Assembly (NCBI GenBank): GCA_905178155.1
Contig: CAJINV010000002.1
Span: 7,594,743-7,658,742 of the forward strand
DNA length: 64,000 nt
DNA from: Amoebophrya sp. A120
Taxonomy: Eukaryota; Protista; Dinoflagellata
Direction: 5' to 3'
Below, in pieces: positions 3,001-62,522 of the stretch (its first letter is position 1; the number at the start of each line of letters is the position of its first letter). The notes below the pieces were generated by a model. The model saw nothing but the letters and a program-made list of their open reading frames with translations. It was not told the DNA's origin and made no database searches. A program made the position numbers and the translations under genes.

Positions 3001-6000
3001 ACGAAACAGCAACGTTCCCTACCGGCTACATTCGTTCCATTTGTTCCACTGCGCCACGACGCAGTCCTTCGGATTTTCGCACAATGCCATCCCACACTCC
3101 CTTGTTTCCCGAACGTGGCCCAGACACGGTTCCCCGTCGTTTTTGGTCGGCCTCGTGATCCGGCGGGACCGGAACTGCTGGCCGCCACCGCATATGCATT
3201 GCAAAACAAGTATCGTACTCGTATAAATGCATTACAAATTTGAATTTCCTCAGGATGAGAAATAAAATTTGTAATGCTGATTTGACTTAACAAAAAGATT
3301 TGTAATGCATGATTGCAATACGAATACGATACTTTTGCACAGGATACCGCAGGTGCCGGTACAATCGGACCAGTCCTCCCAGTCGGAAAACTCGCAATCC
3401 TGTATGCATTGCAAATATGTCTGGGTCTGGAAGAATGCAACTTGTGATGCTGCATTTGGACTCCAAAAGAATCTGTATTGCATGAGCAGCAAAGGGAGTG
3501 TAGTTTTTGCTGCGGGAAAAGGGAATTTGTCATGCGGAATAGGCATCAAGAAGCCCTCAAGCTCAACAGATCTCTGATGCTAGGGCATGCATCACAGACA
3601 TCATGGCTCATGCAAAACTTGCATGACAAATCTAAAAATCTTCCAGACCCAGACATTTTTGCACTTGATATCCTGCTTGGGGTAGCAATCCGGCTTGCAC
3701 GCGCGCGTCTCGATGCGCGCCCCGTCGATGGTCTTGCCGCACCAGTTCGCGCTCTGTCGCAGGTTTCGCTCCCGCTCCTGCAGGCCCAGGCAGGAGCAGC
3801 TGCCCCAGGGCCCCCACTCGCTGAAGGAGGCGTCCACGCACTCGCAAGGTTCCCGCTTGCAGTGCTTCGTCTGAAATAAAACACGCGTTCTTTTTTTTAC
3901 TTTTAGCCATCCATGTTGTGCACAGGAAAAAACTCGACATCGAAGACACGGTCGTTGGAATTGGTACTTTCACAGTTGATCTTCTCGCAGCACGCGGCTT
4001 ATTCTCGACACAGAGGTCCTTGTTCTCACAGCAGAAGTTTATTCAGCTGCTTCACATCTTATCTACCTGCCCTGGTATTTCTTGTTCTTCTTTCTATCAA
4101 AATCTACTAGGAGAAGCAAGTACATCTAGGGCTACTACTACAACCCCCATCCGGCGGTGCATATATTCATCGTAGTATACCAGATACCTCCTGGAGTGCT
4201 CCATTCGGACAGGATTTCCCGCAGTCTGTGGGGAACTGGTCCAACGAGCGTTTCCGCGTAACCGAACCCGTTCCGCGTATGCATCGCAAAAGTAGTATCG
4301 CACACATAGAATTCATGTTACAGCTTGCAAGAGCATCGCATGACAATACTTCCTTCTATACCTCACTTAAGATCATGTTGGTCAATATTGATTTTCACTT
4401 TCATTACTTTTTCGAAATCTCTATTCAATTTCTGGCAAGTCTTTGTCTTGTAGATCCTTCCCAGGGCAGACATTGACATCCAGGTGGTCTATCTAAATAA
4501 TACTTTTGCGAAGCATACCGCAGGTCACCGAGCAACTGGACCACGCACCCCAGGCGCCGACCTTGCACTCCTTTTCCGCGTCGTGGTGTTCGCAGGAGGG
4601 CAGGTTATCCTCACAAGGCGCGATCTCTTGCAGGGACACCTCGGGGTATTTTTTCATATTTCCACTTGTCTATGCGTCGCGGAAGAGACAGAGGCAGTGT
4701 AATTTCTCCCTAGCCGAGGAAGACGATGCAAGATGATTCACTTCTGTGCTTGGACAGCACAGTGCACCTGCACACAGACGCTACTCAAAAAAATTACACT
4801 GAGTACGAAAAAGGACGAGAAACAGTTTTTTGGTATCTTCTATACATCTCCGCAGCCCTTTGCTTCCGGTCCGTCGGGGTATCAAATGTAAACGTGTCTG
4901 GGTCTGGAAGAATTCACGTTTGTCATGCTTGTCTGGCATGACTCTTAAATCTGTCATGCACGTTACCCAAATGCTCCGTTTTTCTGTCATGCAGAAGCGC
5001 AGCTTGTTATGCAGAATAGGCAACACCTAGGAGCTCCGAAACTTGTCATGCTGAGCCAGCATTTGTAGCCTCATCATGAGACGCCACCCAGCATCACAAG
5101 TTTCCAGACCCAGACATTTTTGCATTTGATACGGGGTACACCTCTACCAATCTGGCCCGCCTCCTCGTTCCGGCGGTCCCGCAGGTGGCAGAGCAGTCGC
5201 CCCATTTTCCCCACTCGACTCCCTATCCTGTGCAAAGGTATCGCAATCGCACTCGTAGTCTTAAACTTAATCGCAGTCGTGCGGCATGACAGTTCCTTCC
5301 TATCCAAAACTGCTGCACATACAAGGGATTTTCAATTTTATCTTTTCTTTGGAAACCAAAATTTGCCATGCGTTTACTACCACTACCAGTACGACACAAC
5401 TTTCGCGATGCGTACCACCACGCAATCCGTCGAGTTTTCGCGCAGCATGGCCTTGTAGGAATCGCGGAGGGCGCAACTTTCCACATTGCACGCCTGCACC
5501 TCCTCCATGGGCACGCCCGCGTCGTGTTCGATCTCCTTCTGGAACTCCGGCGATTCGGAAATCAGATGGTAGTGCTCCTCGGTGAGGTTTTTCCGGCGCA
5601 CGAGCTCCTCGACGTGTTTCCCGTGTTTCTCGTCAAACACGCCGATTTCGTGGCAGCCCTTGCCGCCCCTCGCCGGGTATTGGGTAATGTCCCGGTAGCG
5701 GGAGCGCACGCCGTTGCAGGTCGAGGAGCACATCGTCCAGGAGGTCCACTGGGAGATTCTGCAGTCCTGCGCGCCGGCGTACCACTCGGGACAGTGTTGC
5801 AAATTGCACGACTTGACCTCGACCAGCGCCCCGTCCTCGCACAGTTTGGGGTTTTTCCCGACCGGATTGTCCACGATTTTCCGTGTGCGCGTCTTCTCCC
5901 CTGCGCCGCAGCTGGTGCTGCACTCGCCCCAATCCGTCCACTCCGAGTACTTGCAGTCAACGGTGTGGATTTCCTTGTTAAAGTAGTTTTCCTGGCAGGG

Positions 6001-9036: not shown

Positions 9037-11847
9037 TCAATACCCGTGCACCTGCTTGACGATGGAACACACCATGGAAAACACGATCGCGACGTAGAGA
9101 ATCCACAAATTCCAGCTTTTCAGCTCCAGCGGGTTGACCAACAGGCCGAAGTACTCCCGTGCAGAGCGGTTTGCAAACAGCGTCCGCGTCTTCACCAGCG
9201 TGACGTCGAGCAGCAAGTCGCAATCATCCATACCCTGCTTCAACGCCTCGTAGATGTCCCGCTATCCTGTGCAAAAGTATCGTACTCGTATTGCAATAAT
9301 GCATCTTTTTCTCAAGGTAATCTCGCATTACAAATTTTATTTGTCATGCTTAGGAAATTTGTAATTGCATATGCATTTATACAAGTACGATACTTTTATT
9401 GCACTCACAGGATACGCGCTGCGCCCCGCCCATGTTGCCAAAGATCGCTGCCGCCGCGGCCCCCGGACCCGAGGAATAAAAACTGCCAGTACAACTGCCG
9501 TGGGAGTTGCAAACTTGCATGCCCTCGAAATACGCGTCCCGGGCCTCCTGGACACGGCCGAGGAAGAACAAAGCCGCGCCCTTCCGTGCGTACGCCCGTG
9601 GAAAAAGTGGGTTGAAGTGGATTGCGAGCTTCGCGTCGCGTAGCGAGTCGGTGTACTCTGCCAGGTTGGCGTGCGCAGCGGACCGGTTGGAATAGATCGC
9701 GGCGATTTGATTATGGGAAGCAAAAAACCATACAACATCTTCCTTGTCAAGAACGCAATTTTTGTCCTACTTTGTTCATCGTACTGCTGCACGTCAGCGC
9801 GTATAGTTGGTTTATCGTCAAGGCTCATTTATCTAGCGTAGAAGTTTGAAATCAGCGCACGAAGCCGCGAAAGCGAGGATGTAAGGCGAGTGCGGCAGGC
9901 GCAGCCAGGCGTCAGCCTACAACTGAAGCCTACCATATTAATATGTTACCTGGTCAACACTAATGCAAAATAAACTAGGGGACCAAGCACGCGAGGTAAA
10001 GGGCCTTCTACAGCCTTAGTTGGTTTCTTCCGTAGTTATTTCAAGTTCAACACGTACAAATACGTAACCCGCAAATATCTCGGTTGTATCCAATGCGTAT
10101 GAGTAGAAAGACAAAAAGCGTTGAGACTTTGAATCAAGATGTTTTTCCAGCAACATAGTGTTTGTCTTTCTCGTTCTCAGTGTCGACCGCGTCAGCAGAG
10201 CCCCCTGTGGCAGCTGCAGCTGCGCCTTTACACTCATCCGCTTCCCCTCCTGAGGTGGCGGAGGTTGCTGTACTCGTGCCGTTCTGTTCTGCATCCTCAC
10301 TGCCCTGCGAAAAATGTGCAGTTGGCGTCGACGGAGGCAATTGTTGTTCGGACTTTATTTGATGACCATGATCAACACAGGTGGTAGCTCCACCGGCATC
10401 TTCAAGTTCTGCTTGCGTTTCCTGCGACGGCGCGGCGTTTCCTTTGCCCCTTCCACTTGCGTTGTCGCTAGAGGTAGAGGAGGTTGATGAAATTCCTGTT
10501 GTATTGCGGCAAAGTCGTCTGCAGAGAGATGGATCGAGATGAACGGAAGAGAGAAAAGCACTTCAGCAAAACCAAAAGCTGCGCGACGCAGCTTTTGGTT
10601 TTGCTTTGAACAATATGCAAGAAGAAGAAATATCAAAACCGTACGTCAATTACAATTAGACATCGTGAATTGAGTCCACGCCTTGCGTGACCCGTGATGA
10701 GTAAGTACCTGCCTTCCGCTCCTGTTCTTCCCTCTCGAGCGCAATTCCAGCTGCTATGCTCGATGCCTGTCCCAGGAGCGTGAGCGCCTTGGTCCACTGA
10801 ATGATTGCCATTTCCCAGTCCCCGTCGCGGAAGGCCGCGCTCCCCGCCTCCTTCCGCAGCTCCGGCGTGGTCAGGTGTTGCGCCATCTTGTTTGCGAGCC
10901 GCTTCTTCCGCTGAATGCGCTGCCGCCGGTCCTCTTGCTCCTCGGCGCGGGACTTCGGTGACAGACAGCGGAGTTTGTCTTCTCGGGTGGGCTTTTTCGT
11001 CTTCTGTTGCAGCGACAACGCGGTGACAGGAGGGTTCGTGTTTGACGAAGTAGTACTGGAGGTAGTGTTTTCATTTTCACTAGCATCCTTCGCAGTAGCG
11101 GCGACATTTTTGCCACGCTCGGTCCATTCTTGGAATGTTTTCGGCGCGCCATGATCACGAGAAGAGGAAAGTTGGCTGAGGCTGATGCTGCTCTTGTCAG
11201 AAGAAGCGCTTGCGGCCCTGTTTCTATCGTCAGTCGTGGGGGTATCGTGGGGAAATAACGAAACAAGTCTATTTTCTTATTTCGAAAATCGTCGAGTTGC
11301 ATCAATCTTAAAAATTAGAAGTTGCACAGACACGGTCACGGCGACAAACTCTACAACCTCATAGTTGATGCATCTGTCCATGTGTCGTGACACGACTACA
11401 CTACTGATTGAAGCAGACGCAGTCGCAGAGGCCGCCGCCGTGAGCGCATCCGATATAAAGAAGAAGAGAACGGATCTTCCCACTACGATACATCATTGCC
11501 GCGCCTCCTGCGCCTCCTCCCAGCGACAAATTGGACCTCCTGGACGGAAACACCTTGCCAAAGCCACCGGCCTCCAGCGCACTACTTCCACTTTTATTTC
11601 CGCTGGCCGCGGTCTTTTCTTTGACTTTCTGATAGTCAAAAGCGTCCAGTGGGCAATGCTTTAACGGATTTTTTGGTGTGGGCGTTGTAGTTCTTTCCTG
11701 CTGGATCCGCTTCGTTATACAACCCTCGTCGTCCATCCGGGATGGTTCTGAGGGAGGTTGAGACTCTTCTCGTCGGCAAGAGTCTTCTTCTAACACCTCC
11801 AGCAACGGCTCCGCATCGGACGAGTCGGGACGACCAACGGCACCCAT
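9037..11847 (-). CDS. Multi-exon TPR-containing protein with C-terminal hydrophobic segment (5' end uncertain)
   Basis: TPR-like KEAGSAAFRDGDWEMAIIQWTKAL (10790-10865) and FFLGRVQEARDAYFEGMQVC (~9510-9570). C-terminus LWILYVAIVFSMVCSIV before the stop at 9037. Confidence 0.65.
9263..9414. mobile_element. Introner, family B; predicted canonical GT-AG intron 9262-9415
   Basis: tatcctgtgcaaaagtatcgtac...gtacgatactttt...caggata; flanks cccgc/cgcgc; GT-AG splicing gives AQRRDIYE. Confidence 0.88.
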
Positions 11848-12293: not shown

Positions 12294-15200
12294 TTACGAA
12301 ATATCATCGCGATCGCCTTCTATGTCGCTACCATCGTCCCCAGACAGAGACCGCTCGTCGTTCTTCACCGTGCCATCGTAGGCTCTCGGCCCCCCTCTGC
12401 GGCAAATTTCACGGATAATCTCCCAGGCACGGGAATGTAGCGGTGCCGGGCGCCGCTTCGTCGCCGCGCGCCGGTTCAGCGTTTTCCAACGAGCCTTGAG
12501 CACGTCCCGGCTTCGGCAGTTCTCCTTGCACACGGCGGTAGTCTTCAGTCTATCGAAGTCCGCGGCGTAGAGCGGTAGCAGCGGGCTCTTGTTAATCCCC
12601 GCACCGTCGCCTCCGTCAAGTCCGGATGAAGGCACGTCCATTTCCCGTAGTTGGGTAGTAAAATACTGATACTGCCCAAACTGCTCTTTCCTCTATCCGA
12701 AAAAAAATTACCGCAACCGCAAGGATCGATATTACAACAAGTGAACACGAACTGGCATGACAACGACAAGACCCTTCTTCTATCTCGCACAGCCATTTCA
12801 AGCAGTGCCTTCGTAAAAAAAAGCTGCACTTATTGCAACGAGAACGAATCTATGATGCATGTTCTCCGTGTCACAGTTCGACTCCTGCGGTAATAAGTTT
12901 CAATTTGTCTTGCATACCGTCAATGAATACCGGAGTATCTCGTCGTAAAGCAGTTCCATTTCTTGGGACAATTGAGGATCCGGCTTCAAGTGTGGTGGCG
13001 GCTCCACGTAAAGCTTCTTAGTCCCGCCGGATGATTTTTGCGATGCTGCAGACCACGCTGCTTGTCCTTCGGCACCCAAATTCGTTTTCCTTGATGAAGA
13101 GCCCCCTCCTGCTGGTGACAACTCCCGCAACACTTTTTGCTTTCGCCCCTCTTTGTGCCGCATCGCCAAGTCGTGTATTGTGTCACACTGTCGCTTGTTT
13201 TCGCGCAGCGAGTACCAATACTCCGCTTTGCCCACGGCATTCGCCATGGCCGTGTAACATAACAGGAAGTCTTCGCGCTCCGTGAATTCTACACGACCGC
13301 CGCCGCCACGGGGACGACCTCCTGCTGGACGAAGGGCAAGAGGCGGAGGAGCGCCGCCGGGTAGTAGATCTTGATTTTCTTCTTCATCTTTTCCACGGTT
13401 CTTCGCTTCCAAGTCCACCGATTTATCGTTCTTCTGCATCAGAACCAATTCCGAACTCCTACTGCCTCGGCCGCCTCGTCCCTGCTGTGAAAATATCGCC
13501 CCCTCCTTCTGGTCCTCGTCGTGGTGGAGGTTCATGCGCATGCCATTGCCACGTCGTCCCCCTCGTCGCTGCATCATTTTCTGTTGTTGCTGCTTCTGCA
13601 GGTACAGCTCGATATCGCTCTCCTCTTCGTCCTGGTCGTCTTGTTGTTTCGCAATGACCTGCGCATGGATGTCCTCCTCTTCCATGATCACTGGAAATTC
13701 TTCGGTGACTGCCCTTTTTCGACGCCCAGTGCTGGCGTCTTCGTGATCTAATTGTAGTTGTGCCATGGATTTATACCGATTGACTCGATCCATTTTGTCG
13801 TCCAGAAATGACGACGGGCGCATCTGGTCGATGTGCTTGCGCAGGACTTCAGGCCGGACATCGGCTAGCTGTTGTACCGGGAGGACTTCGACTTTTTCTA
13901 GTTTCGCCAGCATCGATGACACTAGCGGTCCTCGGTACAACACTTGATTTGGATCACTTTGGAACCTAGAGGATGCGCCGGCGCTTTCCTTGCGGCTCAG
14001 CCTCATCAAACTGCTCACGCTGTTGCTCAATACGACTTGATGTTCATCAGAATTGTTGACCTCCGGCGCAGCAGCAAAATTATTCGCAGGCCTGGGGCTG
14101 GTAACTGGGTTGAGCAAGGTTGTGCTTTTCGGCGGCGGGGCCGAGGGTGCGCGGGGTTCGCGCTCGTGAGAAGTGCTGGTCTGTGGTTGATGTTGCCCTT
14201 CTTCGGCGTTCTTGTTCATTCCCTCCCGTCGCGGCCCTCCAAAGTGTGGAAGTGCACTTGCACCTCCTGCTCCTTCATCTGCGCTTCGTGGTGCCGGCGG
14301 TGGCTTTTTGGTGAACAAGGGGATCGCAGACGACGATCCTCCAATGGCATCAAAAGACGCAGCTCCTGACGAAGTAGGTGCTGTGCGTGGAAATGGTTTT
14401 TGAAATGATAGCTTCCGCCCTTGCTGCAGCACCTGTCCTCCGGCTGCCGAAGATGCCAGTCTCGGGGGCATTCGTTCTCCCGGTGCTCCTGATGCAGCGT
14501 TCTTGTTCCGCTTGAACGAAGCCTCTCCCTGCAGCTGGTGGTCCTGTTCCAAAAAATCCGCGACATCTGCCGTTTGTTGTATCAGACCGCTTGGAAGTAG
14601 ACCAGCTCTTGTCTCATCTTCTTGACTCGTCCCACCTGCAGCATCACCGAGATCAAGTTGTGACTTCTCCAGGGAGCGGCTCTTGTTGTAGTTCTTCCGC
14701 AGAGCAAAAGCCTCAGCCGTGTTCATATTTCTCGTAGCTGCCCTGCCTCTACTCTTCAGCAAAGAGTTCATTTTAGTGGAACCGAAAAGAAACGAAGATG
14801 ATGCAGCCTCCACTGCAGCTGCTGAAAAATTTCTCTGCTCGCTAGCGGCAGAAGGCTGCTGATTCAAGTTCGGCACACGATCCTCCTTGATGACATTCAC
14901 ATTCGTCGTCGACCCATCTTTGTGCTGGGCAGCAGCCTGCAGCTGCTTCTTGGTATTCATCACTTTGCTTTTCACGTAGCCACCGTGTCCTTTCCTGAAG
15001 CTTTCTTCGATTTTCGCCGCCCATTCCTCTTTCCTCTGGGCCTTTGCCAAAATGTCCGACAACGGGAAGGCAGGCAAGGCGGCGGTTTTGGGTGCGTCTC
15101 CTTGGTGGTCTTTCTCGTTCATTTCTAGCGCTCCTCCCGTCTGAGTCGTAGTTCCGCCAGTTGTTCCCGCGCCAGCAACGACGTCCTTGAAGGGAGATGC

Positions 15201-28705: not shown

Positions 28706-31700
28706 TCATTCGGCGTCCTCATCTTTTTCAAAATTCGGATCGAGCGCGAACTCCTGCATGGGCCTGGGCACCAAGGGTACGTCGTTCGCCATCTCCATCA
28801 GATTGATGCAGGAGTCCTGGCGCTGCTTCTGCTGCCGGATCGACCGAATAAAGTCAACTTCGCCGAACCGCTCCACCTTGGTTCGCCGACGGGCCGGAAT
28901 GGTTATGTATTGATGCATCCACTGTGGCAGCTCGTCGATTTCTGTAGGTGGATAATTATGTGCCCGTTGGCCCATACAACATGGGTAATCAGAAAAGCAT
29001 TTTGCGCAAGAAGATCTTCTAGAAACCCATACTAGACGAGAAGGCAACTACCTTCGTAGGGACTGGCTATCGCATCGAGAACTAGGTCGATTGTCAGCTA
29101 CCCTACTTTCTTGCCCTTAGTCTACTTCTGAGCATGGACAAAGAAATTCGGTCGTGCTTGACCTATACTAGCCCGAACCCATGTCTACCCAGCCGCTGTC
29201 TTCTTGTTTCAGGTGATACTGCTACTGGCATTTCATTGCTTGTAGAAGATAGATATAGTGGTAGTGCCTCTCTTACCGTTGGAAAAAGAAAAAGGAGACG
29301 AGATGACGAGAGAAACGACGAAAGCGTTCAGCGGCATCGACAGATAGCAGTCGCGGAGTATTGCGCAAGGCATGAGTGATGCGATATTAAAGCAGGCTCT
29401 ACACCTATCTTCTACGGACATGAAATGAGAATGACATGAAACAAGAAGAAGCTTCGACTCTAGGAAGTTCTTTTTCACGACACACCCACGACCCAGACGA
29501 GGCAATTTTCTACTTGTAAGAGAGGCACTACACTACTTCATACTCGGGAATCTATGATGAGATTTCGCTCGTGCATTTGAATTCCCGCAGCCATTCATCT
29601 TCTACAGGCAATGAAACACAATCAAAGCAGACAAGAAGACAACAGCATGCTAGAAAATACATTGAAATTCCGATTTCTCTGGAATCGTCACGTAGCGCTG
29701 CATCCACTTTGGCAAGTCGCGTATGTCTGATCGCAAAAGATAAAGATTTCAACAGCATAAAACGCATGACAAAGTTCCAACTTTATCCTTTTTGACGCTG
29801 CAGCGGTGCATTCGCATAATTTCAGAAAAAAAATTTACGAAAACAAAATGACCACACATTCACTAATATACTTCCGACGTTGGGCGCGACCCGATCAGTG
29901 TACTGACCGGCGTAGGTCAAGCCAATGTTGTGCCGTATCTGTGCGTATCAAATGCAAATGTCTGGGTCTGGAAGAATGCATGTTTGTCATGCTTGTCTGG
30001 CATGACTCTTAAATCTGTCATGCTTAACAGACTGCGCAACTCTTAAATCTGTCACGCACGTTACCCAAGTAGAGCTCCACTTTTCTGTGATGCAGAAACG
30101 CAGTTTGTCATGCAGAATAGGCAACACCTAGAAGCTCAGAAACTTGTCATGCTGAGCCAGCACTTGTGGCCTCATCATGAGACGCCACCCAGCATCACAA
30201 GTTTCCAGACCCAGACATTTTTACATTTGATAGTGCGGACGTGATGTGTTGGGGTATTCTCGGGACGTTCTCGTCGTTAATGCCGTAGTTTGTTGGCTGC
30301 ACGCCTAACCGCAGGTAATCGGGCACCTCGTTCACCGGGAGGGGTGGCGCAGCCATCATATTGCCAACTGGATCTGAGAGTGAGACATCGTCATCGATTG
30401 AGCTGTATTTCTCTCCTCTGTCTTTCACAAAACATGATATATCAAAATCTGATGGCATTTCCGTGCTTGCAACTGCGCGTGTGTACTAACACTAAGTGTA
30501 ACAAAACAAGAACATAAACATTACTTCCATCCGCCCCCAACATGGGTCCACCGCCGCCGCCGCCCATCATGCCGGCGCCGCCCGGCATGCCCCCGCCGGG
30601 CATGCCCATCATGCCGCCGCCCATTCCCGCGTCGCCGTTCATGATCCGCGCCACCGTGGAGGACCCGTGGTTCATTAGGCTGGGATGGCCGACCAGGTTC
30701 GGTATGCTCTGTTGCTTGATCATCGCAGCTGTGTCTGGGTCGGCCATGTGGTCTATTGGAAGGGAACCCAGATCGGCGGCTTCGTCGCCCGGGTTCAGAG
30801 AGGCTGTGTTTCATTCGATAAGGATAGACAGTATTAGTATTTCTAATTTATATTTTGTTGTACGCGGGTCGTGTGGTGCCGGTGCGCAGCTCTGTTATAC
30901 AGTCTGGCGTTCTTCGCATTCGGGCATTCATCGCGTTAGATTGTTGCGAAGTCACTTGAGTCCGGGGTACCCGGATATTTGAGAAAACAGACATCATCAA
31001 AAATCAAATATTGTCTTCGTCTTGAACTTCATGGCCGCATCGTGATCGTCTTACAAGAATATACGCAAAGTTTCATACAGTAAAGAGCTGTACCCTTCGC
31101 CTTTTCTTCGGCTTGTCTCCGGGCCTTTTCGAGGGTGAAGTCTGGCCAGACGCCCTGTTTGAAGTCGTAGTGACCCATCCTGCGCTGCCATATGGCGTTC
31201 TCAAACGTTACACTCTCAAGCTCAACTGTTACATGGATTTGTGATGCAAATTAGCCATGCATATCTACACGATCAAGCTGCTTCGCATGACAAGTTCGCG
31301 ACTTGCTAGATAGCATGAGAATCTACGCCAAACCTGTAATGCAAAAGGCGCAATCTTCCCCCTTTCAATTTTGCCACTCTTGCATTACAAATTCACGTAA
31401 CAGTTGAGAATGTAACATTTGAGAACTCCATATGCCACTGGTTCAGGTTCGCACGCTGGCCGCCAAAGGTGTCTGGAATGAGCAGGTCTATGGAAGCGTC
31501 AGGATTGAAATCCTCAAAGTTGAAATAATTTCTCATGCAGAAATTGCAAGGCATGAAGTGCCTCTGTTGCAGGGATTACAAATGAGGCCGATTGTAAGCC
31601 TGTTTCGGGTTTGGAATAGAGCTGCTAAAGTAGCATCACAAAAGGCGCCTTCTGTTCCTAAACAGCATGACAAACCGGTTTTAGACGGTGCCGAAATTTG

Positions 31701-33340
31701 TCATGCGCCGCTGGGAAATTGGGCTTCCGTCTGGTATCGATTTTATGCATTACAAATGATTTCAACTTTGACGATTTCAATCCTGACACTCCCATAAGGT
31801 CCGACACCTCCTTAAACGGCGGGTCGCCGCGGAGAAAGATGTTGGCGCGCTTCACGCGGAAAAACTCCAGGTTTATCCTGCGATTCACGGACTCGACGCG
31901 GTCGTAGTCGTTCCAGAAGGCGAGGGACGGGAATATCCAACAGAAAAAAGCAAGTATGATAGCATATCATCCGTATAAATGCAAAAATGAATACGCAAAA
32001 GTACATAAGGATAAGCTCTCTAGTGTATGCTAAGCAGCATTCCATGGGCTCCTGCAGACGTGTCTTGTATTGGTATTCGTATTTCTTTTTGCATTTACAA
32101 TTGTGATACGCTGGCGGCTTTTTTGATGTGGGATAGGGAGCGAAGACTGCAGGGAGCGTTGGAGGTGGATCAAAGGGTTGATAAGTTGGGAATACCTGCA
32201 GTAGTTTGCCATGTCAGTAGAACAACCATTACGTGCCTCACCTTCATCATCATCTTGTCTTTGCAATACGAATAGGAAAGACGTAGAGCTGCGGACAACG
32301 ACAAGGTTTTAACTACACGACTAGCATACCTGTGACAGAGCTCCACGAAGTCTGCGATGTAGTAGCGGTGCAGTGGGAGTGCCGCAAAATTGATCTCGCT
32401 GGTGGAAAACGACTCGACAGGGCAGTCATCGTACAGAGAGTAGTACTCCGAAAGCTGCGTGCACGTCAGGTAGTGGATGGTCCACGACTTCTATGCAAGA
32501 AAAAAAGACTGCTTTTGTGCATTACGCAAGGCGATTGCGTCTGTCATGCTGGTCATGCATTTTAGGGCTCATTCAAGCGCGTTTTCGTGTACTAGTTAAG
32601 CATGCCAGGTTTTTGCTGTCATGCCGGACAGATTTGTAATCATCATGATATCCCTGCACCGTCAAAACCAAAAAAGTATACACGTACAATCTCTTTTTCT
32701 TACGGTAACTTTACGTCCTTCACGATGATGTAGAACATGGCCTGGCAGAGCTCGACTTTGGAGAGACTGTTGAACTTCAAAAAGATGTACAAAAATTCAT
32801 CCCAGTTGACCACGTCAAAGCAGCCCCCAAACTCGACCAGCCGCTCGAGACATCCTTCGACCCACTTTCTTCGGTGGGGGACCAGGGTCTTCAGACTACT
32901 GGTCGCGACCTCGGAGGCCGTGGTGATGGTGCGGTGCTTGTTTATCAGGTGGAAAAACATTTCCCACCCGGAAATACGAATACCTCATCTTCCGATGCAA
33001 AGTTGTTGTATCGATTTTTTTCATGCGCTCCAATCCGAAAAGTGGTGGCTTGCGCGAATTTTTTTTTTCGTTGATATATGTATACAGATTTTCCCTACTT
33101 CTTGGTATAGTGGCGTGGGAACGTTTTTCCTCAAGATCATATCCTTTTCCGCCTGTTTCAGCTCCGAGAACACCTTGTACAATTTCGCCAGGTGCTTGGG
33201 CATAATCTGCAACTGCATCAGCACTTCCTGCACCTCGGTGGACGGCTTCATCGGTGCGCCCCGCATCACCATCCGGAAAATGTTCCGGAGCGGCTTGGTG
33301 AGCGCCTCCATTTTCAAGCTGTTCTTTGTTCCTGGGGCAG
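28706..33340 (-). CDS. Multi-exon protein with EF-hand-like region and Gly/Met/Pro-rich segment (start uncertain)
   Basis: Exons join in frame after removal of four introners (e.g. YIIVKD-KSWTIHYL, KEVSDL-LIPDTFGG, LNQWQRRMG, TSAQIRH). EF-hand-like FDVVNWDEFLYIFLKF. Confidence 0.65.
29946..30232. mobile_element. Introner, family A1, with internal duplication/insertion
   Basis: Same TIR and body as 4880 and 50979; perfect TSD gtgcg; 287 bp versus 252 bp. Confidence 0.95.
31191..31432. mobile_element. Introner, family C
   Basis: tatggcgttctcaaacgttaca...tgtaacatttgagaactccata; perfect TSD tgcca; homologous to 47755. Confidence 0.93.
31489..31796. mobile_element. Introner, family D
   Basis: ~40-bp TIR tatggaagcgtcaggattgaaatc / gatttcaatcctgacactcccata; perfect TSD aggtc. 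Confidence 0.92.
32492..32707. mobile_element. Decayed introner; predicted canonical GT-AG intron 32491-32714
   Basis: tatgcaagaaaaa...tttttcttacggta; flanks acttc/acttt; internal tgtcatgc motifs. Confidence 0.75.
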
Positions 33341-34829: not shown

Positions 34830-37489
34830 TTAATTTCTCGCGTTTTTCCTATTTTGGTCATCCTTATTTCCCACGAGAGCAAAAGCATCGGAGTAGGCCC
34901 CGCCACCCTTTGCTTGCGTTAACTTGTTGGACATCATCGTTCTGTAGTCGGCTGAAAAGTCTTCCAGCCGTGCGTGGTCCACGTACCACGGTAAATGTCG
35001 GGCCTCAAACTTCGGACCAGCCACGCGTAACGTGTGCCGCACGCCGCGCACCCACTGCGGATTGTGGTAGCTGCATTTCGCCTGGTACATGACCGCCGCT
35101 GTGTCGACGGGGGACACATAGATGTCCAGCTCGTTGGCCGCGATCGCGGCCGCTACCTTCTCAACTTGCACTTGTCGTTCCGCCGGCGTCTTCGACCGCG
35201 TGCCGAAATCCTTTGGGTCCAGATGACCATCGAACCAGGTGGCGCCGTGGTTCAGCTGCCTCGCCCGCAGTAACGCCAGCTCGTACTCGAAGCTCTTCGC
35301 CTCGCCCCGACTGTTTCGCAGGCCCGCGAGATGCTTGCGGAGGGGCTCCAAAGCGGCCTCGTTTGTGGCTGCGAAAAGCTTGGACTGCTGCTGATAAGAG
35401 TTGACGCCGACTGCTCCATGTGTATTTGACGTAGTTGAGGCGCTGGTCGTTGTACTAGGGCTAGTGCTATCGGAAGGCAAAGCATTAACATGTTGATTCT
35501 CGTGAAGATACAATGTGTGAGTCTCGGGCTCGCGAGTCAGCGTGTCGTAGTGGCCGCGCAGCGTCTTCTCAATCGCCGTGTTCCAACTGATACGCGGCCT
35601 GAGAGACTTCTGCACGTCCTCGTGCAGAGAAGTTATTGCTGACGTTCCCTCCTCCACCTCGTTAGACCGTGGTACGCTTGCCGTGCCGTTCACCGCACTT
35701 GCGGCTGCAAAGTCCAGCTTTAGAAGCCAAAACCGGAGCTCTCGATCCAAGACGAGTTTTCGCTGCTTGTCAGATGGTTTTATCGGAAAAGAAACGGCGT
35801 TCTTACCAGGTGCCGCAGAACTGGTCTTCATCTGTGCCACCTCGGACTGGTCATCAAGTCGGAGAGTGACGTCTTCGGTCGCATACGAGCTGAGCTCTAG
35901 TGACCTTCTGCCCCCGATTGTCCGAGCGTATGGACGACCATTTCCACTTGTTGGATCCCCTTGCTCCGCATGATCAAGACCTTCTGCTGGCGCTCTTTGT
36001 CGACTATAAGTTGTATTCATATTCTCATGATCCCCATAGTCAAGAAGATCGCTTTTCCTTTTCGTGACCACCAGCTTTGTGGTGTCTAAATCGTCGAGCT
36101 TCAAGGCGGGCGCGACTTTGAGGATGTGCGGAAACAAGTCCAGCAGGTCGTTGAAGACGTAGAACCACTGCCTGCCCTCCGGAAAGAGCACATCCACGTC
36201 CGACACCACAAACCGCCTGCCGTGTATGTCTGCCGCGTGGGTGAGAACCCCACCGTAGGACTGCCACAAAGCGTAGCACCCGTCGTTGCGGTAGATGCGG
36301 TGCAGCGTGAAGTTCGCCGCTGCTTCCTTATCGCGAGAAAAAAGCGTTTACAGTTTGTTACACATTTGTTGGATTTTCTGCATCACAAAGTTGCTAGACA
36401 TGGCAAATTATCAAACCTGTGATGCGCAGACTATAAGGGAAAACACGAATGACATGAGGTTGGCAAGCGTTTCCTGCATGACAGAGTTTGTCTGTCTTGC
36501 TTGTCTCCGATCAGAGTGTGTAACTGTAACACTTTTTTCTCAGGATATTCCTCGGAATTGTAGTAGTAGTCCAGAAGCGGCGGATACGAACTGTTGTTGT
36601 CAATCACGTGCAGGTTGTAAAAACCGTTCTTGACGAGGTTCCGAATTTTCAACTTCAAAAAATGCAACAAGTTGAAATTCGTCGTGATAATCGGAATGGA
36701 CGCGGGGCGAGTGCGCTCGTGGAGAATGTGCTCATCGGCATGTCTGATACTGATGCCGGGGCCGGGTAAACCGCGGCGCCGACGTCGACGCTTGTTGCTT
36801 ATTATCTCGTCTGCATCGCCTTGTTCATCTCCTGTCGTGACTGGAAGTAGATCTTCCTCGGGGTCGTGCTCCCTCTGCTCGTGGTCTTCATTCCCAGCTA
36901 GCAACCGCAATCGCTCGTCGTCTTCGTCATCTTCTTCTGCCGCTTTCGACACCTCCGCGATGGTTTTTGCCAGAGGGTGGTAGTTCTCGTGCAGTATGCT
37001 ATCGATGCGGGCTTTCGGCGGTCGACCTTTGATAAAAACGGACTTATGTGCCCACACTACGGGTGGCGGGTGGCCGGCGCGAGGGTACGTGACAATGTGT
37101 TTCGTGATGCGATACCCACGGCGACGCTTGCGTCGTGTTGGAGGTAGGGGAGTAGACACATATGGATCATGTGACAGTTCTTGTGCTGCCGCGACCGGGG
37201 GCTTTGACGATGAGTAGAGTGCAAGCGCACATTCCACCAGACTGGTAAAAACAAATCTACCACGGCGACGAAGAAGGCAAAACCACGAAAAACATCGAAA
37301 TATGACGACTGAGGACGTTGACAAGAACGTGGATGTTGCTCTTGACCTGGAGCGTCGCCGCCAATGACTGATGACATGACGATCACATTTGCCCGACGAG
37401 TACGAATTGACTTTCTCCATGGGACGATCGATCTTCACAAAACGGCCAAAGCTTGTTCTACCTCCAGTATGAAAATCGCACGTATCCAT
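34830..37489 (-). CDS. Glycosyltransferase family 2-like (GT-A fold) protein, two exons; start uncertain
   Basis: Motifs IPIITTNFNLL, HVIDNNSSYPPLLDYY, VVSDVDV (DxD), KVAPALKLDDL, PVDTAAVMY and ARHLPWY. Exons are in frame after removal of introner 36329-36547. Confidence 0.75.
36329..36547. mobile_element. Introner (possible GA-AG intron)
   Basis: tatcgcgagaaaaaag...cttttttctcaggata; perfect TSD ttcct; excision restores NSEEAAANF. Confidence 0.9.
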
Positions 37490-44222: not shown

Positions 44223-47200
44223 TCACCGCCCGAACTTTCGCTTGGCGCCGTAGCACAGGGCCAGTTTTTCCGGACGCACGATGTGGGGCCATTTCTCCTT
44301 CAGGTAATCCATGAGCTCTTCTTCCGCGTTGTGCAGGATTCCAATCTCGTACACGTTCCAGCCCTGCTTCGTCTCCTGCTGCAAGACTTCCTCCCGAAAC
44401 TCGTCCCCGTCTTCGTATTGCAGGCGAATGGAGAGCAGAGTCACGGTCTCTCCGGACGACGCGGCAACGTGCGCCATCAACGGGTTCCAACCGTTCCGGT
44501 CCTGGATGGACACGTCCCCATGCGATTTCACCAACAGCTGCGTAATTTCGATCGCGGTGTCGACCCTGGGCGGTAGTGTTTGGTTCAAGAATAATATGGT
44601 TTTCATTTCATACTAGTGTCAAAAAGTGTGTCCGAAAAATTGCGGTCGTCTTGAACATCATGCGGTCACTGCTGCAATTATTTAGAGACAAATTTTTGGA
44701 AGCGTACAACTCGAAGTTGTTCGACTTGTAGAACATTTACAAATACATAGAAGCGAACAAGAACAAGCAGCCCCGCTACAAAAAATTACTGCAAGCTCGT
44801 GGGTTCCGCGGCCGTTGCGATGAGGTGCAGCAAGGTTCGGTTGTTGTACTCGGGGTACTGGTGATTGATCAAATCCACCCGCAAACACGCGGCATGCTGT
44901 CGGAAAGTGACAAAGTCGCACTTCAACACCGTCTGCAGTGCCGCCTTCTGGTAGTGCTCTTTCACCTTCGGGATGTGGTCGGTCAGCAACCGGATCGCCG
45001 CGTTGGACTTCGCGCCGTACGGCGAAAGTTTTGCGAGCTCCTCCTGCTCCTTCTCTTGCCGTCTCCGTTTTCGCTCCTGCTTCTCGTCGTCGTCCTCCTC
45101 CGGACCGGAGGTTTTTGACCCAGCGCCGTCGTCTTTGGAGCCTGCCTTGGAACTCGTCTGATCCTCGTCCTCGTCGGATTCGTTCAACAGAACTAGGTTG
45201 ATACTTTTGTACAGGGACAATAACGCCGACCGTCCCTCGTCGTTGTTGTTCAAATGCACGCCACAGAGCACCGGGGTCAGCACGACCTTAAACTGCTCGT
45301 CGTGCTTGTTCCGCGACGATTCGGAGGAATTTTCCGTGGCTTCGCGGTTCTCCTTGGGCTTTGGCGGGACGTACTCGGCCAGTCGCATGTAAAAAATCGG
45401 CTGTCCGGAGAACTTCCGGTTGTACGCACGCATGGTGTAACGCACACTGTCGGTGTATCCAGGAAAAAACACCCATCCCCATCCAATTTGTCATGCAAAA
45501 CGTGCATAAATTCCACTATTTTTCATGCAAAAAATGGATGGGGATGGGTGTTTTTTCCTGGATACGGTGGTGTACGCCTGGAGCCGCCCCAGGTCGCGGC
45601 AGACGAGGTGCGACGAGTCCGGAGAGTCGTAAAACTGGAGAGAGGATAAAAATAAAAAACGTTGAGCAGTGCATATCAAAAATAGAAAAGCGATCTATGG
45701 TATGATCATCATCATGTGCCTTTAGATGTTGAACAAAACCGCTAAGTAATTGTCACGACTAGCCCACACGTACCTTTTTCAATCTCTGCCTGGACCACGG
45801 TATGACGGATTCTTTGATCCCCTTCTCCTCCTCTTCTTCCGCTCCCTTCTCTTCCTCCGCTCCGGATTTGAGCAAATCCGCAATCAAGTCGCCGGATTTC
45901 TCCGAACCGCCATCTCCCTTGTTTTCCTCCTCTTCTTCCTCCAAATCTGCGGGGTCTTCCACCGTCTCGTCAGGAATGGTTTCTGACAGTATGTAGTCCG
46001 CCAACTCCTCCGGCGTGAGTTCTTCTTCGATAAAGTGCTGGGTCTGCTTCTCCTCTCCATTGCCACCTGCGGTCGTCCCATTGCCTCCAGCAGCTCCATT
46101 TTCAACGGAGCTGGCCGGGCTGGCGGACGCGATGACCGGGCTTGAGATATTGAGCGTGACTTTCGCCGGCGCACTGGTTCCCGTCCCGTCGTCCAGCATG
46201 GAAGCGAGCGCTTGCTGCTCTTCGGACATGTTTTTGTCGAAGTTTTTGTCCTCCACGGTCCGCGTCACGCGATCCGGGTCCCACCGCACGTCCAGCATCA
46301 ACAAGCTATCCTGTGCAAAAGTATCGTACTCGTACTCATTGCAAATATGCATGACAAATGTTTTTCCGAAGCAGCAGCAGGGAAAACAGCATTACAAATT
46401 CCACTTCCCCTCTTGCCAGCAAAATTTGTGATGCAATTTATACTAGTACGATGCTTTTGCAATGCATACAAGTTCTCCGCGAACAACTTCGCGCACACCT
46501 GCTTCGGGTCCCATATCAAGTGCAAAAATGTCTGGGTCTGGAAGGTTGCAACTTGTGATGCTGTCTTTGGAAGGTAGGAGAAATCTGTATTGCATGACCA
46601 GCAAGAGGAGTTCAGTTTGTGCTACGCGCCGGAGTGGGCGTCTCGCATGCGGAATACGCATCAGAAGGCCCTTTAAAAATCTGTGATGCTAGGCCATGCA
46701 TTACAGGCAGTATGGGTTATGCAAAATATGCATGACAACCCTGGCAATCTTCAAGACCCAGACATTTTTACATTTGATATCCCGGGGCGGGGGATTGAAG
46801 TAGGCCGCGGGCAGGCCGGTTTTCTCGAACTGTTTCCGGGCCTCCTCGCTATCCGGCGGTGGGACGGCGTTTGGAAAGTAGAAGTCGAAGGGCTCGAGCG
46901 GCACCGCGAAATTGCTCGCGGGAACGGAATATGAACTGCAAAAGTATCGTAGTCGTATAAATGCATTACAAATTTCCTCAGCATGAGACATAAAATTTGT
47001 AATGCGGGTTTGCTTGTAATGCATGATTGCAATACGAGTACGATGCTTTTGCACAGAATACGGAAAACTCCCGCTCGCTGGCGTTCACACAGTAATCGCT
47101 GACCCGGGTCAGCGACAGGTTCGTCATGCGGTCGACCATGAAAGTTTCCCCAATGCAGTTGAACTCGAAGTTGTACCGTCCGGCCGTTTGGAGCGAGGAA

Positions 47201-49496
47201 GGACCTTTTATTTATATTTGGTGTTGATATCGACTTTCTGGATTTCAACTCATTGCGTTGCTCTGCAGCGTACTTTTACGACCTCGCCCGCTAGCTCTCT
47301 ATCTCGTTTCGGTTTCCTGGATCATGAAACAAGGATTAACGAGGAGGAGGAGGACGGAGGTGGGCGGAATCGGAAAATAAACTCTTATCTTGTCGTTGAA
47401 ATAGATCTTCACGTTTCCTAGCTTCTAATATAAAAGCCTTACCACCGCGCAGCTTGACGATGCACTTGATTTTTTTCGCCTGTCGGTCGTTTATGATCGT
47501 GTGCGCAGAGGACAACACGTACACGTTGTCCGGATCGCAGGGGCAGTAGACCAGCGTCCCCACGCCGATGAGTTCGGTCTGCGCGTGGTTCGTCAACAGG
47601 GCCACCGCGGCGAAGGCCCGGTTGATCTCGCGCGCCTTCATCCTTACCGGCAACTGGTTCCGCGGATCCACGAAACTCCGGTCGTGCCAGGGCGTTTCGT
47701 TGATGCCCTGCACCCCCTCCAATTTCCGCCGCGTTTTCTTCTTGAGCCGACCGCTATGGCGTTCTCAAACGTTACATTATCAACTGTTACGATGAATTTC
47801 TCATGCAAAAGTGCCTGCAGCCGGCAGATGATCGAGCTGCTGCGCATGACAAACTTCGGAAGAGCTAAACAGCATCTAAATCTTCTGCGCCAAACTTGTA
47901 ATGCAAAAGGCGCAATCTTCCTCCTGTCACTTTTGCCATTCTTGCATCACAAATTCATGTAACAGTTGAGAATGTAACGTCTGAGAACCCCATAACCGTA
48001 CTGGTCAAACTCGGGCTCCGCGTCCGCCTGCTCCATATCCTGTGCAAAAGAAGTATCGCACTCGTAGTCGTACTAATTGCAGTATATGCATGACAAATCT
48101 TCTTTTCAAAGTAAAACAGCATGACAAATTCCATTTCTCAACATGCTGAGCAAATTTGTAATGCAATTTGTACTAGTACGATACTTTAACTTTTGCAGTT
48201 CATACTCCATCTCCGCCTGCCATTGCGCCATGCGCTTCATCTCCTCCTTCTTCGCCGCTTTCTCTGCCTCTTCCTGCTCAATCGCGAACTTCGAACCGAG
48301 AATCTCGGTGTTGTTCTTCGCATCCAGGTCGTAGTCCTTTTTCCAGTTTAACGACTTGTTGACTTCCGGCTCTTTTTCAACGTTTTCGTCCTCGTCGCTG
48401 CTGAACTCCGGCTTCGGTTTATTTGGCTTGAATCCGAATCCGTCGTCGACTTCTTTGTGACGTCGTGCATTTTCGTCTTCTTCGCCGGACGAGGTACCGA
48501 TTTGGAACAGTTGCTGGATTTGCGCGCCCAAAACGTGCTCGGCAAAGTCGTTGCCGCTCGTGTTCGAAACGTTCGCGTTGAACACGTTGTCCACGGCGTT
48601 TTCGTACACATTTGTCAACTATCAAATGCAAAAATGTCTGGGTCTGGCAGAGTCATGCTGTTTTTGCATGACACAGAAGGTCTGGCATGAGAGCTCTAGC
48701 ATCATAGGTTTCGAGAAGCTTCCGCAATGCCGAACCCGCATGAGAAGTCCCCTACTTTGGTGACAGAAAGTGGGCAGCTTTTGCTGCCCATGCATGAGAG
48801 ACTTTTCTGCGTTTCAAAATACGCATCAGAAGTTCGGATCCTTCCAGACCCAGACACTTTTGCATTTGATATCAACCTGGCGATCTCCTGGTCTGCGTCC
48901 TGATCGAGGGTGGAGAGCGGCCCCATCATCTCCACGGCCTTTTCGAACTGGCCCTGGAGGACATTGTCAATGAACTCATCATCCACCTGGTACATCCTCT
49001 TCTTCGCCTCATCGATCGCCGCCTGCGTCTCAGCGGACACAATCACCTTCTCGCGCGGCTTGTGCTTGTCAACGTCGGCGTCGTCGTTTTTCGGGTCATT
49101 ACTTTCATCCTTAGCCGCCGCGGCAGTGCCGAGCGCGGCTCCTGGGGTGGCGTTCCCTTCGCCGTCGCCCTCTGGTGCTGGCGCACCATTGGGGTCTTCT
49201 GCATTCGGGAGCGGAGCTTGTTCTGCGTCTCCTGGTGAAGACTCTGGCGCAGTTTTTTCCCCTTCTGCTGCACCACCCTCATCCGGGGCGGCTTCGTTTG
49301 TCGCCGCATCTGCGTTTTGCGTTTCTGGTGCAGCAGTTGTAGCACCACCGCCAAGAACTCCTGCATCATCTGGTGGTGATGCTGCTTGATCAGCACCAAC
49401 ATCATCCGCAGCTGGGACAGCTGCTGGCGCTGCTGATGCATCTTCCGCTTTTTCTTCGTCACCGCCCTCGTCAGCGCCAGCTTGCTCCTCCGACAT
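44223..49496 (-). CDS. Multi-exon acidic protein with trypsin-like (PA clan) domain and C-terminal ankyrin-like repeats
   Basis: About 11 exons join in frame after removing seven introners and three other introns. Motifs VLSSAHTI, FSGQPIF, VLCGVH; ankyrin-like RTLLHLIA and QDRNGWNPLMAHVAA. Confidence 0.7.
45456..45564. mobile_element. Introner, family E (109 bp, almost wholly palindromic)
   Basis: tatccaggaaaaaacacccatccccatcca / tggatggggatgggtgttttttcctggata; perfect TSD cggtg; excision restores AYTTDSVRY. Confidence 0.93.
46307..46468. mobile_element. Introner, family B; predicted canonical GT-AG intron 46306-46469
   Basis: tatcctgtgcaaaagtatcgtac...gtacgatgcttttgcaatgcata; flanks caagc/caagt. 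Confidence 0.9.
46514..46779. mobile_element. Introner, family A2
   Basis: tatcaagtgcaaaaatgtctgggtct...agacccagacatttttacatttgata; flanks tccca/tcccg; homologous to 3403. Confidence 0.92.
46930..47060. mobile_element. Introner, family B
   Basis: tatgaactgcaaaagtatcgta...tacgatgcttttgcacagaata; perfect TSD cggaa. Confidence 0.92.
47755..47994. mobile_element. Introner, family C; possible canonical GT-AG intron 47754-48001
   Basis: Homologous to 31191; flanks accgc/accgt. Confidence 0.9.
48036..48204. mobile_element. Introner, family B
   Basis: tatcctgtgcaaaag...cttttgcagttcata; perfect TSD ctcca. Confidence 0.92.
48620..48871. mobile_element. Introner, family A2-like, in reverse orientation relative to 3403 and 46514
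   Basis: Family A TIRs; perfect TSD tcaac; right half matches the reverse complement of the left half of 3403/46514. Confidence 0.92.
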
Positions 49497-49916: not shown

Positions 49917-51572
49917 TCATGCCTCCGCCCCCACAAAGAGTTGCTTTTGGTTCTGCTGCGACAAAGCCGCGTAGTCTATGGGGACGTCTTTCTCCGCTTC
50001 CGGTACGAACACGGCGACCGCGACGAATATCAGCAGGTACGCGAAGACGAAGGTGATGCAACTCGTCCACCCCGTGGAGGAAAGTTGCGTGTACAGCGTG
50101 TCGATTTTCGACACCGGGTCTTGGACCCACGTAAAGAAGAGCGGGTGCTTGGACGGAAGCCCGAACTCGTTGCTCCACTGCTCGACGCCCAGCCGGTAAA
50201 AGGCGCGGTCCTCGTCTTTTATCAGCCGGAGACCTCAACAGGAACAGATTTACGTAGTTGCATTATGAGTTTCTCTCTACTAACTAGTGTTGGTTCTGAC
50301 GGTATTACATATACACACACGACTTTGATCGAAAACACACACTTTGATTGCATGAAATCGAAATCCACGACGAACAAATCGAATTCCAACCTGCCTTCGC
50401 CACATTGTTGTCCACCTCGCCGCATTTGAATTGATCGCCGCTCGGCTGACAGCAGTCCGTCCCTATTGCCCAGAAGTCGAAGGTGCCGCTATTTGGCAAG
50501 ACTAACCTCGTGGCCTCGCCCTGTAAAGGCTGCCCGACTATTGGAGCCACGCAATACGTCTTCGTATCTCGGAATGCGCGCGCGGATTCCGTTGCTACCT
50601 GACAGAAGTAAGTGACACTTGCGGTCATGAACTGAAGTGCTAAGGCCACTTCACGGGCATGGCCATCTTCTTCATGCTCCACCTTGTCATTTCAATTTCA
50701 GACTCACATGGACATTTCAATCCTGTTTTTTCAGGACCTGTAATCAACCTGTCGTAGTCAATCACCGAAGAAAATTCCAAAAACAAGCTGCAACATGTCA
50801 CTTACCCGCGTTCCCTGTTTAAAGTACAGCACGCCAGCGTCCATGTAGCTTTGTCCTTGCGCGTTTGCAGGGTCGATCAGAACGTAATCCGCCAAATCCT
50901 GGTAGGTGTACCAGTCTTTTGCGTACAGCGAATACAGCGACCTCCCAACCGCGTAACCCCCGATCAACCCCGCGGTCATATCAAATGCAAAAATGTCTGG
51001 GTCTGGAAGAATTCATGTTTGTCATGCTTGTCTGGCGTGACTCGTAAATCTGTCATGCACGTTACCCAAGAGCTCCGTTTTTCTGTGATGCAGAAGCGCA
51101 GTTTGTCATGCAGAATAGGCAACACCTAGGAGCTTAGAAACTTGTCATGCTGAGCCAGCATCTGTAGCCTCATCATGAGACGCCACCCAGCATCACAAGT
51201 TTCCAGACCCAGACATTTTTACATTTGGTAGGTCAGGCCGAGCGACAGCACCGCGTGCCATTTCACGTTGAAGAGCCGGTTTCTGCGCCATTTGTACCCG
51301 ACGAAGGAGAGGTGCCAGAGGTAGAAAAAGACGAACCAAAAGAGGATCACATCGGCGACATGCGGGAGTTCGTGGTAGAGTCGGAAGGCGAGGAGGTAGA
51401 CACACGCGCAGAACACGATTGGCGGCAGAATAAAAACGACCAGAAGTGTCCCGTTGTCGACGGAAAGCTTAAAGAGTGATTTAGGTGGTGGTGGGGAGGG
51501 AGGTTGGGAGGCGCCGGGGGGTGCGGCGGTGGCGCTGTTACCTACAACTCCTGGGGCGGCGCCGTACAACAT
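49917..51572 (-). CDS. Multi-pass membrane protein with Cys-containing lumenal domain (about 4 exons)
   Basis: Three N-terminal TM segments, YCVAPI...DFWAIGTDCC...FKCG region and one C-terminal TM. In frame after removal of introner 50979. Confidence 0.8.
50979..51230. mobile_element. Introner, family A1
   Basis: Near-identical to 4880; perfect TSD ggtca; excision restores LGLTAGLIG. Confidence 0.95.
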
Positions 51573-62310: not shown

Positions 62311-62522
62311 GCAAGCAAACAAATGTCGCCAGAGGCACGGCTTTGCTTACCATCTGGCGACCCGCCAGCTGGAGCGCAAGCCAAAGCCTTGGACTTTCGT
62401 CACCAATTCTCTGTCTAGGCGCACCAAAGAGGTTCCCAAACAGGTTCATCAAAATCCACCATACCATGCGGATTAGGTTAAGTTAATAGCCTCTTGGGAG
62501 ACCTCATCAAAGGGGTTGTCAA

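Follow-up and report, generated by a model that had tools for sequence, protein, structure and literature searches.

Introduction

The introners of the dinoflagellate Amoebophrya sp. A120, a marine parasite, are described in the main text of PMC7789003 as non-canonical introns whose inverted repeats (IR) consist of TAT, seven variable bases and a run of As, with direct repeats of 3-5 nt. The IRs of strain A25 are of the TTA type. In the tabulated part of Gozashti et al. (PMC12130899), most of 40 (out of 58) A120 rows are entered as terminal inverted repeat (TIR) DNA elements of superfamily Unknown, and fam38 of A120 is labelled 'Ginger, 5-bp TSD, TA/TA termini' (TSD, target-site duplication). 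Both the movement and the splicing of Amoebophrya introners are called open in those parts of the introner literature that we draw on. Here we studied a stretch of 64,000 nt of the A120 genome (contig CAJINV010000002.1, positions 7,594,743 to 7,658,742), referred to in full as the window, in which short TAT..ATA elements share an internal motif, GCATNACA. These elements fit the published A120 introners, which they resemble in IR, short direct repeats, a length of ~100-340 nt and the large number of families (as given in passages of PMC7789003 and PMC12130899). We propose that the fuller form of the motif, (W)GCAT[G/T/C]ACARATT, is probably a helically phased double-stranded-DNA site bound by one transposase (or a transposon-encoded partner) serving many families.

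The closest described parallel is the MITE (miniature inverted-repeat transposable element) Emigrant, whose subterminal repeats are bound by Lemi1 proteins and which, like CACTA, hAT, Sleeping Beauty and pogo in the passages of PMC1636448 on these systems, combines short motifs in two orientations inside the TIR with non-autonomous elements, as found here. According to the same passages, the Emigrant repeats copy half of the TIR, which is itself the main binding determinant, and binding has been shown, whereas here binding by a transposase is inferred. Unlike in Emigrant, the motif of the window recurs in families whose TIRs have no more in common than TAT and an A-run, and its position keeps phase with the element end. 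By end chemistry, the closest superfamily is IS3EU/GingerRoot, with TA..TA termini and no target preference (PMC10045372, PMC6839031, in the parts on termini and targets), in agreement with the absence of sequence preference in the target duplications here. However, IS3EU/GingerRoot duplications are usually 6 bp according to the same parts, whereas those of the window elements are 5 bp by flank match and skip length, and the elements were therefore not filed under this superfamily; Ginger1/Ginger2 differ in their TG..CA termini from the TAT..ATA of the elements here.

Taken together, A120 introners (PMC7789003, PMC12130899) and subterminal binding repeats (PMC1636448) are already known from the passages cited, and the novelty lies in a single phased word, internal to the elements, that families with dissimilar TIRs have in common. 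In the passages drawn on here, PMC7789003 (its figures S19-S25 may bear on this) and PMC12130899 mention no internal shared motif or phasing, and no report of either was found in the literature searched, including passages of PMC9860276.

A motif shared by the elements of the window

An earlier note, made from the sequence of this DNA, had claimed that the motif recurs across the introner families A-E, and this was confirmed: GCATNACA has 67 matches in the window (30 plus, 37 minus), compared with 7.56 +/- 2.68 (max 14) in 100 dinucleotide shuffles, and a 9-mer version occurs 47 times. Sixty-two of the 67 copies lie inside 25 short TAT..ATA elements (5,333 nt, 11.6/kb), 21 of which carry at least one exact copy, and the remaining five fall in the other 58,667 nt of the window (0.085/kb), two of them in a relic of family M. 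The list of 25 elements was drawn partly by hand, and a motif-blind detector gives the same picture. All sites that the note had named carry the motif, exactly at 3621, 4920, 5091, 3229, 46389, 31382, 47944, 31633, 31747 and 45488 and one base away at 3299, 31286 and 31666 (3300, 31285 and 31665), while 36329 and 32492 are the starts of elements with motif copies at 36380/36418/36476 and 32542/32617.

The window elements are 109-308 bp long, have imperfect TIRs and in most cases a 5-bp target duplication, and are more AT-rich than exons; the predicted genes of the window lie on the minus strand. Presumed-RNA contigs of runs X1 and X3 (one sample) show joints in 31300-51299, and among those listed (15 of 20) are six GT-AG introns and nine skips of elements. 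The elements are given below with the number of matching TSD bases, the length of the skip, where listed, and motif positions by strand.

3193..3346, family B element; TSD 5/5; motif plus 3229, minus 3270, 3301
3403..3670, family A (A1) element, its left TIR start common to family B; TSD 5/5; motif plus 3589, 3621 (32 bp apart), minus 3443, 3528
4278..4517, singleton with B-like ends; TSD 4/5; motif plus 4338
4671..4844, degenerate TAT..ATA candidate, hand-delimited with uncertain boundaries; neither a TSD nor a motif remains visible
4880..5131, family A (A2) element; TSD 5/5; motif minus 4921, 4952, 4985, 5005, 5044 (steps of 31 and 33 bp), plus 5091
5224..5414, degenerate element; TSD 3/5; motif plus 5284
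9263..9414, family B element, orientation opposite to that at 3193; TSD 4/5; motif plus 9325, minus 9342
12694..12916, degenerate element; TSD 3/5; motif plus 12755
29722..29870, degenerate TAT..ATA candidate with a minus-strand GT donor, boundaries uncertain; motif plus 29764
29946..30232, family A (A2) element in which ~35 bp are internally duplicated; TSD 5/5; motif minus 29985, 30016, 30086, 30106, 30145, plus 30192
31191..31432, family C element; TSD 5/5; motif plus 31285, 31382, minus 31240, 31335
31489..31796, family D element; TSD 5/5, skipped (313 nt); motif plus 31633, 31665 (32 bp apart), 31747, minus 31699
31934..32135, J, an old singleton; TSD 4/5, skipped (207 nt); motif absent, also when one mismatch is allowed
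32492..32707, diverged element K; TSD 4/5, skipped (221 nt); motif minus 32542, 32617
32943..33141, L, an old singleton; degenerate TSD, skipped (204 nt); exact motif absent, a single site with one mismatch at 33017
36329..36547, family M element; TSD 5/5; motif plus 36380, 36476, minus 36418
45456..45564, family E element of 109 bp with a long TIR; TSD 5/5, skipped (114 nt); motif minus 45489
46307..46468, family B element, orientation opposite to that at 46930; TSD 4/5, skipped (167 nt); motif plus 46349, 46389, minus 46427
46514..46779, family A (A1) element; TSD 4/5, skipped (271 nt); motif plus 46698, 46730 (32 bp apart), minus 46554, 46682
46930..47060, family B element; TSD 5/5, skipped (136 nt); motif plus 46963, minus 46998, 47015
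47755..47994, family C element; TSD 4/5; motif plus 47844, 47944, minus 47897
48036..48204, family B element; TSD 5/5; motif plus 48088, 48119 (31 bp apart), minus 48157
48620..48871, family A (A3) element; TSD 5/5; exact motif plus 48666
50979..51230, family A (A2) element; TSD 5/5, skipped (257 nt); motif minus 51020, 51051, 51084, 51104, 51143, plus 51190
58618..58893, an old singleton beyond the span given in the note; TSD 4/5; motif absent
1927..2149, family M-ended relic, likewise beyond that span, within a larger foldback insert (~1710-2361); motif plus 2034, 2077

Among the joints listed, at least nine of the 13 elements in 31300-51299 are skipped in presumed RNA, including the family B copies 46307 and 46930, which lie in opposite orientations in one gene. 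The skip length equals the element plus exactly 5 nt in 9/9 listed element joints, providing independent support for the 5-bp duplication. With TIRs, a TSD of fixed length, short size and insertion in either orientation, the elements have the features of MITEs or non-autonomous TIR DNA transposons, and their end chemistry is that of cut-and-paste DNA elements.

Recurrence across families in a larger sample

For a larger sample, 141 loci (403,876 nt, one metagenome assembly) were fetched by a 21-bp family B end pattern without the motif, and the motif-blind detector, which makes two false calls per 361,727 shuffled bases, found 362 distinct elements in these loci and the window. The elements fall into 36 clusters, of which clusters 18 and 34, likely false, were dropped before family counts, leaving 34 families. 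The way the loci were fetched favours family B (160 copies), and for this reason each count was either weighted by family or restricted to a single member per family. Six families of window elements have 7-160 members, with best matches in the loci 81-91% identical. By the detection rule, the 5-bp duplication is exact in 277/362 elements and matches at four of five bases in 85/362, and 600/724 element ends read TAT, seven variable bases and As, where TAT was a detection criterion and the A-run was not.

De novo, GCATNACA is the commonest gapped 8-mer, present in 30/34 families, whereas the leading word of each of 20 shuffled sets reached 8-12 (a family was counted if at least half of the members examined, max 12 per family, carry the word), and one member from each of the 34 families gives 69 copies in total versus 2.9 in shuffled sequence (max 8 in 300 shuffles). 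In the fuller motif, A is almost absent at the free position N (1/62 motif sites).

The claim that the bodies of the families are not alignable was found to be largely true, as 1/153 family pairs (18 families) aligns once motif and outer TIR are masked, but the families swap end modules: several clusters combine the same end types anew, and we count by inspection ~7 end types over the 34 families. Family-specific short tandem words (e.g., TCTGGG-TCTGGA, CCCCCTCCCC and GTTACA twice), conserved at 0.89, fill positions 17-30 counted from either end, after the A-run and ahead of the first motif, and are possibly a second binding element. Mismatches in the TSD are U-shaped over positions 1-5 (20, 13, 7, 10 and 14 in 281 locus elements), a profile that may bear on where the splice cut falls; in the window, TSD mismatches tended to fall on the base that follows ATA, but this bias was not clearly repeated in the 281 elements and was dropped.

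Motif density in introns and other DNA

The earlier note had named as its own refutation a motif density no higher in the elements than in composition-matched canonical introns. With density classes taken from a gene parser that recovers 13/15 listed joints, family members carry ~12 exact copies per kb, in contrast to 0.65/kb in 79 predicted unrelated GT-AG introns (GC 0.43; 0.27/kb shuffled), which corresponds to an odds ratio of 18.5, so that the claim withstands this comparison. The density is 0.22/kb in intergenic DNA unrelated to elements (0.11/kb shuffled) and 0.09/kb in exons, and the six RNA-supported GT-AG introns among the joints listed (1,057 nt, GC 0.38-0.44) hold no copy.

The motif is also rarer in old copies. 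Old singleton TAT..ATA introns with decayed duplications (singletons being elements without a BLAST match, and predicted introns except J, K and L) contain 1.0-1.2 copies per kb in the two larger classes of 20 each, approximately tenfold below the family members. Elements J and L are skipped in presumed RNA and yet have no exact copy.

Among the predicted GT-AG introns of the window and the loci L001-L080, 32/90 start with GTAT (G + TAT), and unrelated GT-AG introns contain 1.7 one-mismatch motif sites per kb compared with 0.4 in shuffled sequence. Some GT-AG introns may thus be canonised old introners; the residual motif is no different between GTAT and other donors in this same set of introns.

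Conservation of the motif positions

Relative to the two nearest copies (families 1-7), the fixed positions of the motif changed in 187/3927 cases (0.048), N in 50/453 (0.110) and the other interior in 2359/20724 (0.114). The fixed positions thus change 2.4 times less than the adjoining N and than the interior, a pattern that shows purifying selection at the fixed positions and neutral drift of N. In copies less than 5% diverged, the motif changed in 8/354 and the interior in 32/1036 positions (p 0.58, a comparison of little power), and similar rates in such young copies fit selection on moving rather than sitting copies.

These rates also bear on the idea that the motif is a relic without function, inherited from one ancestral element and copied as a 32-bp unit was duplicated in tandem. 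End modules are common to families, tandem duplication is seen in element 29946, and some spacers between motif copies end in AAACA, as such a history would predict. Nevertheless, a relic would hardly keep its fixed positions at this lower rate of change while spacers and bodies diverged beyond alignment (1/153 pairs), and we consider this origin very improbable.

Strand and position of the motif

Both orientations of the motif do occur, as the earlier note had stressed in favour of a DNA site, but this is weak as an argument alone, since elements insert either way round and a signal in RNA would likewise have to be present on each of the two strands. Orientations were counted in 246 elements with a consistent strand call (local and locus calls agree in 246/281). 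The motif is found 303 times sense and 346 times antisense, none of ten families is biased in orientation relative to the gene (e.g., 52:39 and 23:34), and exact copies are sense-only in 32 elements, antisense-only in 46 and absent from eight. Private motif changes amount to 115/2601 sense and 109/2626 antisense (p 0.63).

The positions of the motif follow the element end. Almost no site starts less than 30 bp from an end, and outward-facing sites start 30-32, 40-42 or 50-53 bp from it, with a Rayleigh R of 0.51 at a period of 10.5 (n=52, 0/5000 jitters) that rises to 0.75 for the 31 outward sites within 55 bp of the end. Related end types are shifted by ~10 bp, with A-type sites at 31-32 or 40-41 and C-type sites at 41 or 50-52. 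Direct motif pairs 31-33 bp apart, a distance of three turns of B-DNA, occur in 16/34 families, mostly with unrelated spacers, and in 13/34 family representatives compared with 2.4 expected (max 8 in 2000). The motif has the features of subterminal repeats, being repeated, in both orientations, selectively conserved and placed relative to the ends. Thirty-five matches of the 31-33 bp motif pair in viral contigs were read as chance, as none is similar to the elements.

An RNA splicing signal kept on both strands, i.e., a branch point or the site of a factor replacing the missing U1, might be considered for elements of a genome in which U1 snRNA is undetected (A25 or A120, main text of PMC7789003), and outward sites do lie 30-42 nt from the 3' end. 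Retention shows weak trends in the same direction: private changes in outward sites are 8/298 sense versus 18/311 antisense (p 0.07), and residual sites in old and GT-AG introns number 12 at the sense 3' position versus four at its mirror (p 0.08). A branch-point role was tested because T-N-A-C resembles yUnAy, the branch-point consensus. However, a sense site within the last 70 nt is present in 94/246 elements, fewer than the 110 with a mirror site, intact outward sites are 22/43 sense versus 24/46 antisense, and exact copies are antisense-only in 46/246 elements. Moreover, A, the base at N that pairs best with canonical U2, is nearly missing there, and the absence of the motif from all six listed RNA-supported GT-AG introns and of exact copies from the skipped elements J and L adds to the case against such a signal, which we regard as improbable. 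A spliceosomal branch point proper, expected in sense, near the 3' splice site and in most introns, is not supported on these counts (94/246 elements, 0/6 listed GT-AG introns, no significant asymmetry), apart from the weak trends above, and an RBFOX-type UGCAUG site was rejected as position 5 is free and strand bias is absent.

Inverted motif pairs could also extend the terminal hairpin by forming stems, in RNA or in single strands. In predicted RNA folds, motif bases are paired at 0.74 of positions compared with 0.65 for other interior bases, 99/250 motif sites pair with another site, and some families show arm covariation at TIR positions 4-10. A stem has no need for one fixed sequence across families, though, and N is non-complementary between the arms (7/41 for family 1, where shuffling gives 0.44, and 0/11 and 0/4 for families 5 and 4), while the direct pairs 31-33 bp apart are unable to pair mutually, which makes stem formation a highly unlikely explanation. 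With no strand bias in number or in conservation, N unpaired between the arms, spacing by helical turns and decay in spliced old introns, the preference of the note for a DNA site over an RNA signal is supported.

A proposed transposase site and its alternatives

In the mechanism that we propose for the double-stranded-DNA site, protein monomers would bind the phased sites on one helix face and position a catalytic domain at the TAT ends. Once its motif is lost, a copy would stop moving and stay spliced, so that the motif would disappear from old introns. If specificity is internal, TIRs and bodies can diverge and swap, resulting in many 'families' with one enzyme, most likely an integrase-like DDE transposase, judging from the TA termini and the 5-bp duplication. 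A single mobilising system, about which Farhat et al. had doubts, is favoured by one phased word across unlike TIRs. We further suggest, tentatively and as a little less than an even chance, that one undiscovered transposase system, with the phased internal motif and not the TIR as its specificity, mobilises most of the ~30,000 A120 introners, leaving TIRs and bodies free to diverge into the 1,954 reported families.

Several observations weigh against a transposase site. The weak retention trends of sense sites near the 3' end and the pairing of sites in predicted folds (above) belong here, as do the inward-facing sites, which are not phased (R 0.05, p 0.92, n=40), and the family B ends, which carry inward sites only. 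The ~7 end types common to the 34 families imply that these are not fully independent, and the copies less than 5% diverged are a weak test of neutral decay after insertion. There were no DDE or integrase matches in the 60 long open reading frames (ORFs) scanned, of 252 listed, and neither a transposase nor an autonomous element was found in ~0.4 Mb of related loci. Farhat et al., in the relevant passages of PMC7789003, likewise found no transposase in A120 and argued against general mobilisation by transposases. The data fit a transposase and a host DNA-binding protein alike.

A host protein that the elements have co-opted, for example as a chromatin factor or as a cofactor in bending or targeting, would share the support from strand symmetry, the free N and helical phasing, which suit any DNA-binding protein, and a single such protein would easily serve many families. 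As no transposase was found, a co-opted host protein remains a candidate; an ApiAP2-type factor may be one, given a likeness of the motif to TGCATGCA. Two points speak against it: the motif is rare in unrelated intergenic DNA (0.22/kb vs 0.11/kb shuffled) and is thus not a common promoter word, and its phase is set by the element end, which is the cleavage site. We consider a host protein unlikely, yet the most credible of the alternatives, and a transposase remains our preferred binder of the site.

One long element, L022:4528-5342 (815 bp), was first seen as a transposase remnant or as fam38 and was set aside as evidence, being a family C copy with a secondary insert of ~570 bp flanked by an 8-bp repeat. 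The insert has a (TCA)n end and is possibly a truncated non-LTR retrotransposon; the same insert stands beside other element ends in P0122 and P0124, which appear to be read-throughs of element DNA, and an Amoebophrya sp. A120-labelled protein reads into the same insert DNA (92% over 37 residues). This protein, together with the published IR consensus, links the elements to A120 or a close relative, whereas a gene of the window gave no Amoebophrya match. The ORFs of the 815-bp element gave no Pfam or Atlas match, and viral contigs showed no match for a family A end and no relative of P0122. The element resembles fam38 of Gozashti et al. (808-810 bp) in length. A second long element, L061:1561-2313 (753 bp), has family 4 ends, a perfect 5-bp duplication and a motif-free middle of ~415 bp without a Pfam match.

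Other features of the window

The foldback insert at 1710-2361 has TIRs of ~80 bp and TAA at both flanks and sits in an intron; judged from its TSD, we take it to be Tourist/PIF-like. Three adjoining satellites with units of ~13, 8/16 and 22 nt occupy 24355-26100, and an ORF of 1,068 aa with DUF2921 and RING domains spans 40111-43317. At 61530-63070 lies an array of short palindromic units (GAAAAGATGC...GCATCTTTTC) with spacings of 84-85 and 129 nt, which bears no relation to the motif.

Conclusion

A single conserved, phased and strand-neutral motif links otherwise unalignable families as parts of one mobile system. It sets the signal for moving, which is internal and lost in old copies, apart from that for splicing, which is terminal and kept. 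The motif offers a direct route to the mobilising protein, by pull-down and by a search for long motif-bearing TAT..ATA elements, as well as a marker for dating introns. If one transposase system is indeed at work, its missing enzyme would have driven the largest known invasion of non-canonical introns, and the motif would serve as both the bait and the search key for it.

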